Part shown: positions 37,612-41,010 of the stretch, piece by piece
How positions within the stretch are numbered: position 1 is the first letter of the stretch
How the letters are laid out: each line of letters starts with the position of its first letter
Origin: an uncultured Dehalococcoidales bacterium
GTDB taxonomy: Bacteria > Chloroflexota > Dehalococcoidia > Dehalococcoidales > UBA5760
DNA length: 64,000 nt
Reading direction: 5' to 3'
NCBI GenBank assembly: GCA_964472625.1
Contig: CAYYLM010000006.1
Location: 1,315-65,314 of the forward strand
Made by a program: the position numbers and the translations under genes
The notes under the pieces: generated by a model
The model's input: the letters and a program-made list of their open reading frames with translations, nothing else
The model's database searches: none
What the model was told of the DNA's origin: nothing

Positions 37612-39081
37612 ATGACCCAACCAGTTAGAGTGCGTTTTGCCCCCAGCCCCACCGGCTACCCCCACGTGGGCAACATGCGGACGGCTATGTTTAACTGGCT
37701 TCTGGCCCGGCACACGGGGGGGAAGTTTATCCTCCGCATTGAGGATACCGATGTTGCCCGCAAAGTTAAAGGAGCGCTTGAGGCTATCCTCGACGGTCTT
37801 AAGTGGCTGGGGCTTGACTGGGATGAGGGCCCGGAGGTGGGGGGGCCGTACGGCCCCTACTTCCAGTCGCAGCGCCTGCCTTTATACCGGGAGGCGGCGG
37901 AGCGGCTGATTTCTCAAGGGGATGCCTACTACTGCTATTGCTCGGCGGAGCGTCTTGAGGAGATGCGTGCCGAGCAGACAAGGCGCAAGTGGGCGCCGGG
38001 ATACGACCGCCGCTGCCGCGATTTAGCTCCGGAGGAAAGAGCGCAGCGGGAGAAAGAGGGCGTCACGCCGGTAGTCCGCTTTAAGGTGCCGCTTGAGGGG
38101 CAGACCCGGTTTAACGACCTCATCTGGGGGGAGGTGGTCTTTGAGAACGCCACCATTGATGATTTTGTGCTCCTTAAGTCTGACGGCTACCCCACCTATC
38201 ATCTGGCTAACGTGGTTGACGATAGCACCATGAAGGTTAGCCACGTCATCCGGGCTGAGGAGTGGATCTCCAGTACCCCGCGCCACATGCTCCTCTATCG
38301 AGCTCTGGAGCTTGAGCCGCCGCAGTTTGTCCATCACCCAATGATACTCGGCCCTGATCGGTCTAAGCTCAGCAAGCGGCATGGCGCGGTCTCTATCCTT
38401 GAGTACCGTAAGCGGGGCTACCTGCCGGAGACAATGTTCAATTTCCTCTCCCTAATCGGCTGGTCTCTGGATGACAAGACCGAGATCATGTCACGGGAGG
38501 AGCTCGTAGATAACTTCTCCCTGGAGCGAATCAGCAAGACCGGGGCCATTTTCAACCGGGATAAGCTCGAGTGGATGAATGGTGTTTACCTGCGGCAGTT
38601 AAGTCACGAAGATTTATTGCTAAAAATCATGCCGTTTTTGGAGAGCGGATTGCCGAAGGAGATAAAGCGGCCTATATCGAAAGAATACGTGAGTCTTTTT
38701 TTACCACTGATTCGGGAGCGGATAAACACACTGGCGGAGGCTGCCAAATATGCTGACTTCTTCTTTCTCGATAAACTGGAATATGACGCATCATTGCTGG
38801 TGTGTAAGAAGATGACGGTGGCAACTACACTCAGGGCACTGAAAGCCGCTCAAGAAAAAATATCCTCACTGGAAAGCTTTAACCATGATTTGCTAGAAGG
38901 TACGCTTCGGTCTCTAGCTGAGGAACTAAGGATCAAGGCGGGGCAACTTTTCAACCCACTTCGGGTAGCTACTACCGGCCGCACTGCTGCACCTCCCCTC
39001 TTTGAGACGATGGTGGTACTGGGTAAAGAAAGATGTTTGAAGAGGATTAGGGTTGCGGTGGGAAAGCTAGAAAACAACTGA
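37612..39081 (+). CDS. gltX: Glutamyl-tRNA synthetase (compositionally mosaic: 3' third is low GC)
   Basis: [17 protein letters not shown] (HIGH), LSKRHG (KMSKS). GC falls from ~63% to ~40-45% at about 38580-38600. Confidence 0.95.
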   Translation: [489 protein letters not shown]

Positions 39082-39143
39082 AGTTTACTGAGAATGTCAG
39101 CGAATTATTCTGAGAAGAGTGGAGAAATTAATAGGACGGTTCC

Positions 39144-40844
39144 ATGAATATGACCACAAACAATGTTGAACTACCCCGCGATTTCATCCGGGATGTTATT
39201 AATAATGACCTCCGAACGAATAAATACGGCGGTAGGGTTCATACCAGATTTCCTCCAGAGCCGAACGGCTATCTACACATCGGACACGCCAAGTCCATCT
39301 GCCTCAATTTCGGTATCGCCGTTGAATTCAGCGGCTTCTGCAATCTGCGGTTCGATGATACCAATCCCATCAAGGAAGAACAGGAATATATTAACTCAAT
39401 CATCGAAGATGTTCGCTGGCTGGGATTTGACTGGGGGGATCGGCTATACTACGCCTCGGACTACTTTGAGCAGATGTACGAATATGCCGTGCAGTTGATT
39501 GAAGCTGGTAATGCTTACGTTGATGAAATGAGTGTGGAGGAGATCAGGGAATACCGTGGCACCTTAACTCAGCTGGGCAGACATAGTCCGTACCGGGACC
39601 GTTCAATCGAGGAAAATCTCGACTTGTTCAGTCGCATGCGGGCCGGCGAATTCCCGGAAGGTTCACATGTGCTCCGAGCGAAAATTGACATGGCTTCTCG
39701 GAATTTGAATATGCGTGATCCGGTCATGTATCGCATTCTGTACTCAGAGCACCCCCGTACGGGCGATAAGTGGTGCATCTATCCGATGTACGACTGGGCC
39801 CATGGCCTTGAGGATTCCATCGAAAGAATTACCCATTCCATCTGTACATTGGAATTTGAAGATCATCGTCCGCTATATGACTGGTTCTTGGACAAGTTGG
39901 GCGTCTATCATCCCCAGCAGATCGAGTTTGCCCGACTCAATCTCACCTACACCGTGATGAGCAAGCGCATGCTTCTGGAACTGGTACGGGAAGGGCATGT
40001 GAGTGGGTGGGATGATCCACGGATGCCGACGATATCGGGTTTACGCAGACGTGGCTACACACCAGAGTCCATCCGTAACTTTTGTCGGCGCATTGGAGTG
40101 GCGAAAACCGGCAGTACGATCGATATTGCCTTACTTGAGCATAGCCTGCGCGAGGATTTGAACAAGAAGGCTCAACGTGTTATGGGAATATTGCGCCCAC
40201 TGCGCGTGGTTATTGATAACTATCCAGAAGGCCAAGTGGAAGAATTAGATGCGGTGAATAATCCCGAGGACCCCGGCGCAGGAAAGCGAAAGGTACCCTT
40301 TTCGCGTGTGCTATATATTGAACGAGAGGATTTTCGCGAAGACCCACCGAAAAAGTTCTTCCGTCTGGCGCCAGGTCGTGAGGTACGACTGAGATACGCT
40401 TACTTTATCACTTGTGTGGATGTGTTGAAGGAAGAACAAAGCGGAGAGATAGTCGAGCTTCACTGCACTTATGATCCAGCCACGCGGGGTGGTGATTCCC
40501 CGGATGGACGGAAGGTCAAAGCAACGTTGCACTGGGTTTCGGCTGAGCACGCAGTCGAGGCTGAAGTACGCTTGTACGATCATTTATTCAGTAAGGAAGA
40601 CCCAACTGATGTGGAGGATGGGGCTGATTTCAAGGCTTATTTGAACCCCAATTCCTTGGAGATACTAACCTCGTGCCGTGTTGAACCTAGTCTTGTCGGT
40701 GCAACACCCGGGAGTCGGTACCAATTCGAGAGGCAGGGCTATTTCTGCGTCGATCCCGATTCATCTGCTGGGAAAATCGTGTTCAATCAGACGGTGTCGT
40801 TACGGGATACCTGGGCTAAAATAGAGAAGCAAGAAAATAAATGA
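39144..40844 (+). CDS. glnS: Glutaminyl-tRNA synthetase
   Basis: [17 protein letters not shown] (HIGH), TVMSKR (KMSKS), C-terminal beta-barrel anticodon-binding region. Low GC relative to the core. Confidence 0.9.
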
Positions 40845-41010
40845 ATTGCGCTGCTGGGGCTGAAGACGGGGCAGCTTTTCGGCACCTTGCGGGTAGCCGT
40901 TACTGGGCGCACCGTGGCCCCCGCCCTTGTTTGAAACCATTTCGGTCTTGGGTAAGCAGCGGTGCCTTAGGCGCATTGAAGCTGCGCTAAATAAGCTACG
41001 GCAAAAGTAA
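40845..41010 (+). pseudogene. gltX: Relic of the original gltX 3' end, frameshifted
   Basis: Translates as ...[23 protein letters not shown], then (+1 shift at C5 run 40918-40922) [28 protein letters not shown]. This parallels the intact GluRS C-terminus at 38930-39081. GC-rich like the host, and followed by the RBS/start of the next gene. Confidence 0.8.

Follow-up and report, generated by a model that had tools for sequence, protein, structure and literature searches.

Probable C-terminal displacement in an essential aminoacyl-tRNA synthetase gene: an incoming anticodon-binding domain and glnS at the gltX locus of an uncultured Dehalococcoidales bacterium

The gltX-glnS locus and its left junction

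We analysed a stretch of 64,000 nucleotides (nt) from an uncultured Dehalococcoidales bacterium (contig CAYYLM010000006.1 of assembly GCA_964472625.1, positions 1,315-65,314, forward strand; hereafter the window). Our subject is gltX (37612-39081, on the plus strand like all parts of the locus listed below), which encodes a glutamyl-tRNA synthetase (GluRS) of 489 aa, together with the adjacent gene of glutaminyl-tRNA synthetase (GlnRS), glnS. The gltX gene is chimeric: its catalytic part is native, its last third arrived together with glnS as one block, and the 3' end of the recipient's original gltX lies as a broken relic behind glnS. As references we use naive A-type loci, in which glnS is absent, and B-type loci, which carry gltX-glnS; individual loci are denoted by L numbers and proteins by P numbers.

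The native 5' part of gltX (37612-38569) encodes GluRS residues 1-319 of the catalytic domain and is delimited by nucleotide identity, the Pfam domain PF00749 and the GC content at third codon positions (GC3). The left crossover falls at 38569-38580, in and next to the 11-nt motif TGGATGAATGG (38572-38582), which encodes W321-M-N-G and is identical in all types in the alignment. The incoming 3' part (38580-39081), identified by nucleotide identity, PF19269 and GC3, encodes residues ~323-489 with the anticodon-binding domain (ABD). A spacer (39082-39143) belongs to the incoming block as well, since BLASTN alignments to the B-type loci L003 and L006 run unbroken from gltX through glnS, and glnS itself (39144-40844, GlnRS of 566 aa) is assigned to the block by nucleotide identity. 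The right end of the block is a post-glnS remnant, ATGAATTGCGCTG (40841-40853), whose full form of ~25 nt is ATGAATTTCACTGAAAAGCTCTTGG and which is common to all carriers of the cassette. Then follows the relic (40854-41010), a pseudogene fragment corresponding to residues ~439-489 and the stop codon, with 90% nucleotide identity to the gltX tail of the A-type locus L002. Its +1 frameshift lies in a C5 run (40918-40922) and is specific to the window; CCCC or other sequence is found at this place in A-type genes and in the L007 and L170 relics. Directly behind it stand AGGAGG (41011-41016) and the GTG at 41023 (together 41011-41025), identical to the sequence behind the intact gltX of L002 and L172 and thus in the ancestral position directly 3' of the gltX stop. 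The GTG starts a native flanking gene for an FMN-reductase/flavodoxin-like protein of 188 aa (41023-41589; PF03358, E 4e-32). The open reading frames (ORFs) of gltX, glnS and the following GTG gene lie exactly where the first-pass annotation of this DNA had placed them.

The domain content of both synthetases is regular. GluRS matches PF00749 at residues 5-321 (E 6e-111) and PF19269 at residues 342-482 (E 8e-34), and its full-length structure matches in the PDB include 4gri (E 1e-136) and the Thermus enzyme 1j09 (E 4e-127); with its class I E/Q catalytic domain and helical ABD it is predicted to be a bacterial class I GluRS. The glnS product matches PF00749, PF03950 and PF20974, all above their cut-offs, and is, among the matches listed, 62-78% identical to GlnRS across many phyla. 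From its class I E/Q catalytic domain and two beta-barrel anticodon-binding domains it is predicted to be a GlnRS.

The mosaic structure of gltX is apparent at the nucleotide level. Compared with the naive locus L002, the window is 90.4% identical in rluD, 89.7% in gltX nt 1-960, 90.7% in the FMN-reductase gene and 90% in the relic, whereas gltX nt 961-1095 cannot be aligned, nt 1096-1470 reach 69.6% over only 115 nt, and glnS is absent; to the naive locus L001, the 5' part of gltX is 87.5% identical. Identity to B-type loci is distributed the other way round, with 73-75% in the N-domain and 72.9% in p191 versus 81-89% in the ABD and about 87.5-90% in glnS. BLASTN accordingly yields two matches to L002, 37604-38594 (89.1%) and 40854-41836 (88.9%), with nothing between them, and one unbroken match to L003 over 37622-40853.

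In a sliding comparison, identity switches at gene position ~960, dropping from ~89% to ~57% for the A-type and rising from ~72% to ~86% for the B-type. By the maximum chi-square method, the breakpoint falls within gene nt 958-969 (window 38569-38580). Informative sites, at which the window shares the base of both A-type loci or of both B-type loci, divide 87:9 (A-type:B-type) to the left of the breakpoint and 8:117 to its right (Fisher p = 7e-41). The junction thus coincides with the end of PF00749 (residue 321), where W321-M-N-G corresponds to Thermus W312-G315, some ten residues N-terminal to the domain border that Dasgupta and Basu set at 322/323 (PMC3927822). These data bear out three proposals of the first-pass annotation: gltX is recombinant, resembling the A-type before the break and the B-type after it; the left junction lies in homologous sequence, in conserved gltX at the end of the Pfam catalytic domain; and the ABD and glnS came as one block, because the donor-type tract is continuous to 40853 in BLASTN.

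Base composition is in line with this result. All six 60-nt GC counts on which the earlier reading had relied are exact on recount, although the raw GC step is weak evidence, since an equally large step occurs in 6.7% of adjacent 500-nt window pairs across this stretch. The shift is clear in GC3: 35 long ORFs of the window average 60.6 +/- 4.7%, a value exceeded by gltX nt 1-960 (72.8%) and not reached by nt 961-1470 (50.0%) or glnS (54.5%). Intact A-type relatives pass the same boundary with a change from about 72-74% to only 67-69% (71.6% to 68.8% in one relative). The composition break assumed at residue 326 exists, but both it and the phylogenetic break lie at residues 320-323. The incoming block has, as proposed, a lower GC3 than its surroundings; its donor, however, was no distant organism but a related lineage of Dehalococcoidia with gltX-glnS in the corresponding neighbourhood.

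A protein comparison leads to the same division. From the matches to the full GluRS, which carry the labels Dehalococcoidia, Dehalococcoidales or Chloroflexota, we aligned the 120 best and gave the two parts of GluRS (residues 1-325 and 326-489) and the relic separate scores. The 15 A-type proteins are 86-93% identical to the window protein over residues 1-325 and 52-55% over residues 326-489 (44-50% over residues 326-435), and their tails are 74-91% identical to the relic. For the many B-type proteins the values are 75-79%, 79-83% and ~61-69%, and about ten chimeric proteins resemble that of the window throughout, with 87-95%, 87-96% and ~59-65%. In the trend over all pairs, catalytic domains that are 85-95% identical usually go with ABDs of 76-90% identity, so that the 52-55% between the window and the A-type proteins represents the extreme tail of the distribution.

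A chimera produced by assembly or binning, joining two co-occurring Dehalococcoidia populations at the conserved gltX, would account for the position of the left junction in an 11-nt motif that is identical in all types, a place where metagenome assemblers can switch strains. Such an artefact is nevertheless extremely improbable. At least 10 protein clusters, from JGI, ENA, NCBI and Logan, contain the same chimeric GluRS at 87-100% identity, and the DNA of four other datasets (L007, L008, L170 and L173) has the left junction of the window. L007 and L170 additionally share glnS, a spacer of ~165-175 nt before the FMN-reductase gene, the same right junction and a relic, and a mis-join would not generate a frameshifted copy of the gene's tail behind glnS. 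Because these independent assemblies carry the structure, the objection of an assembly artefact, which the first-pass annotation had raised against itself, can be set aside.

The relic and the right junction

The relic recovers its reading frame when one C is deleted from the C5 run at 40918-40922, and the repaired peptide matches Anticodon_2 (PF19269) at positions 97-141 of 141 (E 2.6e-13; 51 bits at a cut-off of 23.6). The stretch is hence a second copy of the GluRS C-terminus, interrupted by one extra C, as had been recognized before. Its start needs correction, since homology to gltX begins at 40854 instead of 40845 and the incoming segment also includes the first 9-13 nt behind the glnS stop. 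The peptide agrees with the tail of the naive protein P0025 in 49/51 residues and with the gene's own functional tail in only ~61% of residues; at the nucleotide level, identity is 90% to the A-type tail of L002 versus 68-70% to the gene's own tail. Because it matches A-type tails and not the tail of its own gene, the relic is no copy of the functional tail. It represents the original 3' end of gltX in the recipient and shows where the ancestral gene ended, as proposed earlier; this follows from its identity to L002, in one alignment that runs on into the FMN-reductase gene, and from the position of the AGGAGG and GTG.

The ancestral gene order can be observed directly in naive relatives. In L002 (JGI 3300056905) and L172 (GCA_042572335.1), dksA-lspA-rluD-gltX is followed after 13 nt by the same 188-aa FMN-reductase gene and then by a 191-aa gene, fpg and polA, without glnS; this is the synteny that had been predicted for sister genomes. 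The A-type locus L001 (GCA_034414575.1) likewise lacks glnS. In the B-type loci L003 (GCA_011191875.1) and L006 (GCA_964545815.1), gltX-glnS occupies the same neighbourhood between dksA-lspA-rluD and fpg-polA.

These comparisons also bear on two readings that would dispense with a transfer into a naive locus, namely that the A-type is derived by loss, or that the tail was duplicated internally. The former could draw on the fact that gltX-glnS lineages of B-, C- and D-type surround the A-type in catalytic-domain similarity, so that an older cassette is conceivable, and the latter on two tail copies in direct orientation that could in principle recombine. Both are very improbable. A deletion between the two tails would have kept the foreign first part of the ABD, but the A-type ABD is wholly different (44-50% over residues 326-435); an internal origin is contradicted by the relic's match to A-type tails rather than its own (90% versus 68-70% of nucleotides); and neither reading accounts for the very different divergence of block and flanks. 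The locus thus gained the ABD and glnS in a lineage that had been naive.

The relics of three carriers have each been disabled in their own way, by the additional C in the window, by a -1 frameshift a few bases away in L170, and by a nonsense codon and a 28-nt deletion in L007, and they have no start codon, which identifies them as pseudogene fragments. They also follow the sequence of their own lineages: the relic of L170 ends in KKRCLERIGTALDKLQ*, like L001, whereas that of the window resembles L002 and P0025. The relics of the window and L007 are 83% identical, with 19 synonymous to 6 non-synonymous codon changes, between flanks that are 95-97% identical. We read this synonymous excess as divergence that would date from a time when the tails were still functional in separate lineages. 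The description as a decaying relic holds in so far as the fragment is disabled; rather than having decayed for long, it appears to be young and 'refreshed' from functional tails.

In L007 (11150-11220), glnS has lost its stop and the five codons before it through the 28-nt deletion, so that GlnRS ends in ...DTWAMHC* within the junction sequence; the C-terminal KIEKQENK of GlnRS is apparently dispensable there.

At the right junction, 12-13 nt follow the glnS stop (ATGAATTGCGCTG) before A-type sequence resumes at CTGGGGCTGAAG (40854). The post-glnS sequence is common over 12-25 nt to the window, L003, L006, L169, L090 and L089, and the contexts differ beyond it. Altogether, ~2.28 kb have been inserted as a block, at the cost of ~0.33 kb of native gltX (roughly codons 323-438). 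The first-pass annotation had attributed this join to illegitimate recombination in the window lineage itself, and a single event of homology-facilitated illegitimate recombination, using microhomology just after glnS, would fit the short stretch of only 12-13 donor nt between the glnS stop and the native CTGGGGCTGAAG as well as the ~330 nt of recipient gltX lost between anchor and join, which are typical of this mechanism (PMC5361080). We consider it unlikely that the window lineage made its own junction in this way. L007 and L170 share the truncated leader and the start of the relic, while the block differs by 2-5% and relics and flanks by 12-20% (the flanks of L007 being 95-97% identical), and the join lies near-homologously in register with the relics of other carriers. 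As L007 and L170 have the same junction but relics that follow their own lineages, the right junction was most likely inherited and probably not made illegitimately here.

Spread of the block and its probable history

The ABD and glnS are far more similar among carriers than the DNA around them. The ABD of the window is 94-97% and its glnS 95-98% identical to those of L007, L170 and L169, and the block keeps 94-98% identity among lineages with flanks that differ by 12-24%. L170 is 84.8% identical to the window in rluD, 87.8% in the N-domain, 84.3% in the FMN-reductase gene and 81.7% in fpg, as opposed to 95.3% in the ABD and 96.2% in glnS (80-88% in the flanks versus 95-96% in the block), and the tract of high identity extends only from ~38600 to ~40851, i.e. 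to the edges of the block. L169 shows the same pattern with 81.5% in the N-domain and 76.2% in the FMN-reductase gene versus 94.4% in the ABD and 94.9% in glnS (76-81% versus 94-95%); rounded, the FMN-reductase gene of the window is 84% identical to that of L170 and 76% to that of L169. The naive locus L002, in contrast, is ~90% identical in each of rluD, the N-domain and the FMN-reductase gene, its ABD is unalignable or 69.6% identical over 115 nt, and it lacks glnS. Since L002 is closer to the window than L170 in all flanks and the block is nearly identical to that of L170, the genealogy of the block is much shallower than that of its surroundings. The ABD-glnS block, as judged from these genealogies, has evidently spread horizontally among related lineages. 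A neighbour-joining tree of GlnRS gives the order ((window, L007), L170), L169, then the B-type, L171 and finally L093/L094/L096, and mirrors the ABD types, not the catalytic domains.

Further chimeras with other crossovers occur in the group. The GluRS of L169 (P0011) is A-like up to residue ~365 and Q-like (window-type) thereafter, and P0053 has its crossover at residue ~372. L003 itself is chimeric in comparison with the core B-type loci L006, L089 and L090, with 66-79% identity before gene nt ~940 and ~90% after it, which places its crossover at ~935-960. Behind its glnS stands a short relic particular to this locus, APLLFQATAVLDKERCLRRIKVALNRL (E 1e-9 to 3e-10); among the 120 homologues and the loci examined, we found no naive relative of L003, with a close N-domain and an unlinked ABD.

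Behind glnS, L169 contains the full post-glnS sequence of ~25 nt, then a catalytic-domain piece (gene nt ~250-345) and an A-type ABD from residue ~408 to the stop. At 3275-3646 this region forms an intact relic ORF of 123 aa, which overlaps the glnS stop by ATGA and matches Anticodon_2 PF19269 (E 1e-19); the catalytic-domain piece lies in another frame within a scrambled stretch. Of 52 nt in this piece, 46/52 agree with L003, 42/52 with its own gene and 40/52 with the window, too short a stretch to be assigned. L169 probably preserves the oldest form of the relic, with the longer junction, and its structure suggests that the first event may have duplicated part of gltX (by a single crossover or in tandem) and that the shorter relics may have arisen by deletion.

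The relic of L003 (11230-11346) also forms an ORF, of 38 aa (MSFAEKLLAAPLLFQATAVLDKERCLRRIKVALNRLPS*), that overlaps the glnS stop by ATGA, probably fortuitously. The beginning of this sequence, MSFAEKLL..., had been considered as the start of a tail relic (LAEEL) common to B- and Q-type loci; this assignment was dropped, as L169 and L006 show it to be part of the carrier-wide sequence of ~25 nt.

Taken together, we regard it as highly probable that the locus arose by C-terminal displacement in an essential aminoacyl-tRNA synthetase gene, caused by an ABD-glnS cassette. In this scenario the ancestor had rluD-gltX-(13 nt)-FMN-reductase with an A-type ABD and no glnS at the locus. A block of ~2.28 kb from a related Dehalococcoidia bacterium with adjacent gltX and glnS, comprising the last third of gltX from codon ~321, glnS and ~12-25 nt past its stop, then replaced ~0.33 kb of the native gene. 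This produced an in-frame chimeric GluRS with native catalytic domain and foreign ABD as well as a new GlnRS gene, and left the last ~51 native gltX codons stranded behind glnS, dead but still bearing the ribosome-binding site of the next gene. The data themselves show the chimera, the joint arrival of ABD and glnS, where the relic comes from, the direction of the change and horizontal spread. As to the exact mechanism of recombination, we infer that the block, once accompanied by a relic, can enter naive relatives through a pair of homologous crossovers. One would lie where the catalytic domain of gltX ends in conserved sequence, and the other would join the relic of the donor to the gltX tail of the recipient, so that each recipient would obtain the donor's junction but keep a relic in its own sequence. 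The initial junction must have been illegitimate or duplicative, with L169 keeping an older, longer form. Alternatively, naive DNA may repeatedly have overwritten the flanks up to the edges of heterology; the relic would be 'refreshed' and young either way.

Several points weigh against this reconstruction. All loci are metagenome assemblies, and the support for their junctions is at the level of assemblies, not reads. The first donor is not closely sampled: even the nearest B-type loci match the block at no more than 84-90% identity. For homologous recombination, the crossover of the window, less than ~10 nt into the relic, would lie unusually near the edge, and a fresh illegitimate join at a CTG microhomology in the window lineage is still conceivable. 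The sharp block edges could stem from later overwriting of the flanks by naive DNA and not from cassette entry. Finally, the catalytic-domain piece of L169 is unpredicted by a simple replacement and points to a duplicative first event.

Linkage of glnS to the ABD extends beyond these close relatives. Among the matches listed, ~80 metagenome loci were found by their ABD, and a glnS directly behind gltX is confined to those whose ABD shares at least 57% identity with that of the window (L089-L091, L093, L094 and L096), whereas no glnS lies within the flank of ~47 informative loci that have other ABDs. L171 has a third ABD subtype, linked to glnS in a different neighbourhood. The matches to GlnRS listed from genome contigs include no Dehalococcoidia.

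In the Dehalococcoidia-like locus L134 (1616-4949), a glnS 76% identical to that of the window lies upstream of gltX in divergent orientation, and the ABD is of the unlinked type; GlnRS therefore also occurs in this group outside the gltX-glnS cassette arrangement. Among the listed matches in other phyla (L012-L078; Planctomycetota, Nitrospirota, Acidobacteriota, Sumerlaeota, Bacteroidota and others), gltX recurrently lies directly upstream of glnS on the same strand, and GlnRS, at 62-78% identity across phyla, is unusually conserved compared with the adjacent GluRS (N-domain 40-55%, ABD 21-44%).

In the native catalytic part of gltX, identity between the window and its very close relative L007 dips to 86-88% at 37940-38000 and 38300-38390 (95-99% around them), so that closely related genomes may have exchanged other short pieces of gltX by recombination as well. 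Between rluD and gltX lies a variable slot. It is occupied by a 212-aa ORF of low GC (37-47%) with a weak sub-threshold HEPN match in the window (36962-37600), by another, unrelated 212-aa ORF in L002 (7379-8017; BLASTP E 8.8 against the window ORF), by an N6/N4 methyltransferase and a 360-aa ORF in L001 (5764-7992) and by ClpP in L003 (7410-7973), and it is empty in L007, L170 and L172. It looks like a small insertion hotspot adjoining the recombining gltX. Elsewhere in the window (mean GC 0.53), GC is low at 34700-35000, upstream of the dksA-like gene (0.34), and at 1-4000 (~0.46). Around the locus, promoters and terminators were predicted no more often than in shuffled sequence, and the whole 64-kb window contains no tRNA or tmRNA genes (ARAGORN) and no Rfam families above the gathering score.

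Discrimination of tRNA-Gln and comparison with known systems

The joint arrival of an ABD and GlnRS raises the question of tRNA specificity. In the first-pass annotation, the event had been taken for a one-step switch from a non-discriminating to a discriminating GluRS, a claim that our data do not support. Window residue R370 aligns with Arg358 of Thermus thermophilus GluRS, the residue that reads C36, and this column is Arg in all 120 relatives, including the 15 A-type proteins. Because both A-type and glnS-linked proteins have Arg, the column does not separate the ABD types. The GluRS of Borrelia, which is not known to have a GlnRS, also aligns an Arg at this position. In bacterial GluRS, discrimination between tRNA-Glu and tRNA-Gln depends on the recognition of base 36 by the ABD, and mutation of Arg358 relaxes discrimination against tRNA-Gln (PMC2978374), but Arg358 is not a universal determinant of discrimination (PMC3927822).

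Fourteen columns of the ABD separate glnS-linked from unlinked proteins almost perfectly, and several of them lie on the R370 helix (R368 vs Q, I371 vs A, N372 vs K/R, Y380 vs L); the discriminating Thermus GluRS reads R-P-R-F-D at the Arg358 site. That these columns mark the state of discrimination is a lead only, and they are not independent observations, because the linked ABDs form one clade. A PDB search with the 45-aa ABD segment for known residues of discriminating and non-discriminating GluRS returned only two weak matches. A motif scan of the 64-kb window, and of the window only, found no gatA or gatB motifs.

It is a tentative possibility that ABD and glnS form a co-adapted unit, whose arrival replaced a non-discriminating GluRS and GatCAB by a discriminating GluRS and GlnRS in one step, and whose coupling would explain their joint transfer. 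Among the matches listed, every Dehalococcoidia-like gltX-glnS locus has a 'linked' ABD and the ~47 loci without glnS do not; the 14 separating columns, several of which flank the Arg358 equivalent, divide these classes; the phylogenies of ABD and GlnRS agree with each other, and that of the catalytic domain disagrees with both; and discrimination depends on base-36 recognition by the ABD (PMC2978374). The invariant Arg at R370 and the limited role of Arg358 (PMC3927822) speak against it, as does the origin of the linked ABDs from one clade. Moreover, co-transfer is expected for mechanical reasons alone: the only good homology anchor is separated from glnS by the ABD. Still more far-reaching, and in our opinion rather doubtful, is the idea that ABD and GlnRS constitute a co-adapted 'specificity cassette' that sweeps through diverged Dehalococcoidia via gltX and each time would convert transamidation to direct formation of Gln-tRNA-Gln. 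If this were true, R368, I371, N372 and Y380 (versus Q, A, K/R and L) would mark the discriminating state, and the locus would be a natural, repeatedly caught example of a GlnRS and discriminating GluRS pair replacing the ancestral pathway.

How the indirect route (non-discriminating GluRS and GatCAB) gives way to the direct route (GlnRS and discriminating GluRS) is a long-standing question that has been addressed mainly via deep phylogenies. The gltX locus described here offers a recent, physically documented case, in which naive, recombinant and donor-type genomes are all available in sequence and the junctions are mapped to ~10 nt. The natural chimeras with crossovers at residues ~321, ~365 and ~372 are ready-made constructs to study the role of the ABD in tRNA-Gln discrimination, and bear on whether the acquisition of GlnRS requires a change of the ABD. 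Our literature searches brought up no account of this locus and none of GlnRS in Dehalococcoidia.

Several known systems share part of these features. One comparison is with mosaic genes, such as the pbp genes of pneumococci, and with gene-specific sweeps by homologous recombination. Like them, our locus presents a block of shallow genealogy with sharp edges in diverged flanks; unlike them, the block holds an entire extra gene and a heterologous domain, and it leaves a pseudogene scar. Homology-facilitated illegitimate recombination in naturally transformable bacteria (PMC5361080, PMC3240628) likewise uses one anchor, here gltX, to bring in foreign DNA, with loss of the recipient DNA between the joins. 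The junction of the window is shared with diverged backgrounds, however, so that this mechanism would fit the first event only, and two homologous crossovers are more likely for the window lineage. The right join common to L007 and L170 adjoins sequence that is homologous to the recipient tail, so that it may be inherited.

Chimeras of GluRS2, 'mobile' GluRS C-terminal domains and transfer of GlnRS within the bacteria have been inferred from phylogeny by Dasgupta and Basu (2014, PMC3927822). In that study, as in ours, the catalytic domain (Thermus residues 1-322) and the ABD (323-468) differ in history, and GlnRS was transferred horizontally. It deals with ancient mixing between phyla and with trees of GluRS2 paralogues, whereas the event in the window is recent, took place within one class and concerns the only gltX at the locus; it is also linked to glnS and documented by its junctions, its relic and naive sister genomes.

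The closest known mechanism is the C-terminal displacement of rhs, contact-dependent inhibition (CDI; cdiA-CT/cdiI) and type VI secretion system (T6SS) effector-immunity loci (PMC2935791; PMC5361080). The locus differs from these in that gltX encodes an essential housekeeping synthetase instead of a polymorphic toxin, and its partner is GlnRS, not an immunity gene. Each gltX locus also has a single decaying relic instead of an array of orphans, without a reading frame kept across carriers and without signs of re-use. In both cases, a conserved 5' core acts as an anchor for a new 3' end and a functionally linked downstream gene, the old 3' end survives downstream as an 'orphan', and the arrangement recurs in related strains with variable crossovers. 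The mechanisms proposed for rhs, CDI and T6SS loci are homology-facilitated illegitimate recombination, or homologous recombination once the flanks are homologous. In gltX, we find the crossover in the conserved 5' core, accompanied by the linked glnS, and the orphan 3' end retained downstream. C-terminal displacement as known from polymorphic toxin loci thus seems to operate on an essential gene of translation as well, where the displaced gene end can serve as a homology arm that makes the inserted gene transferable between diverged lineages.

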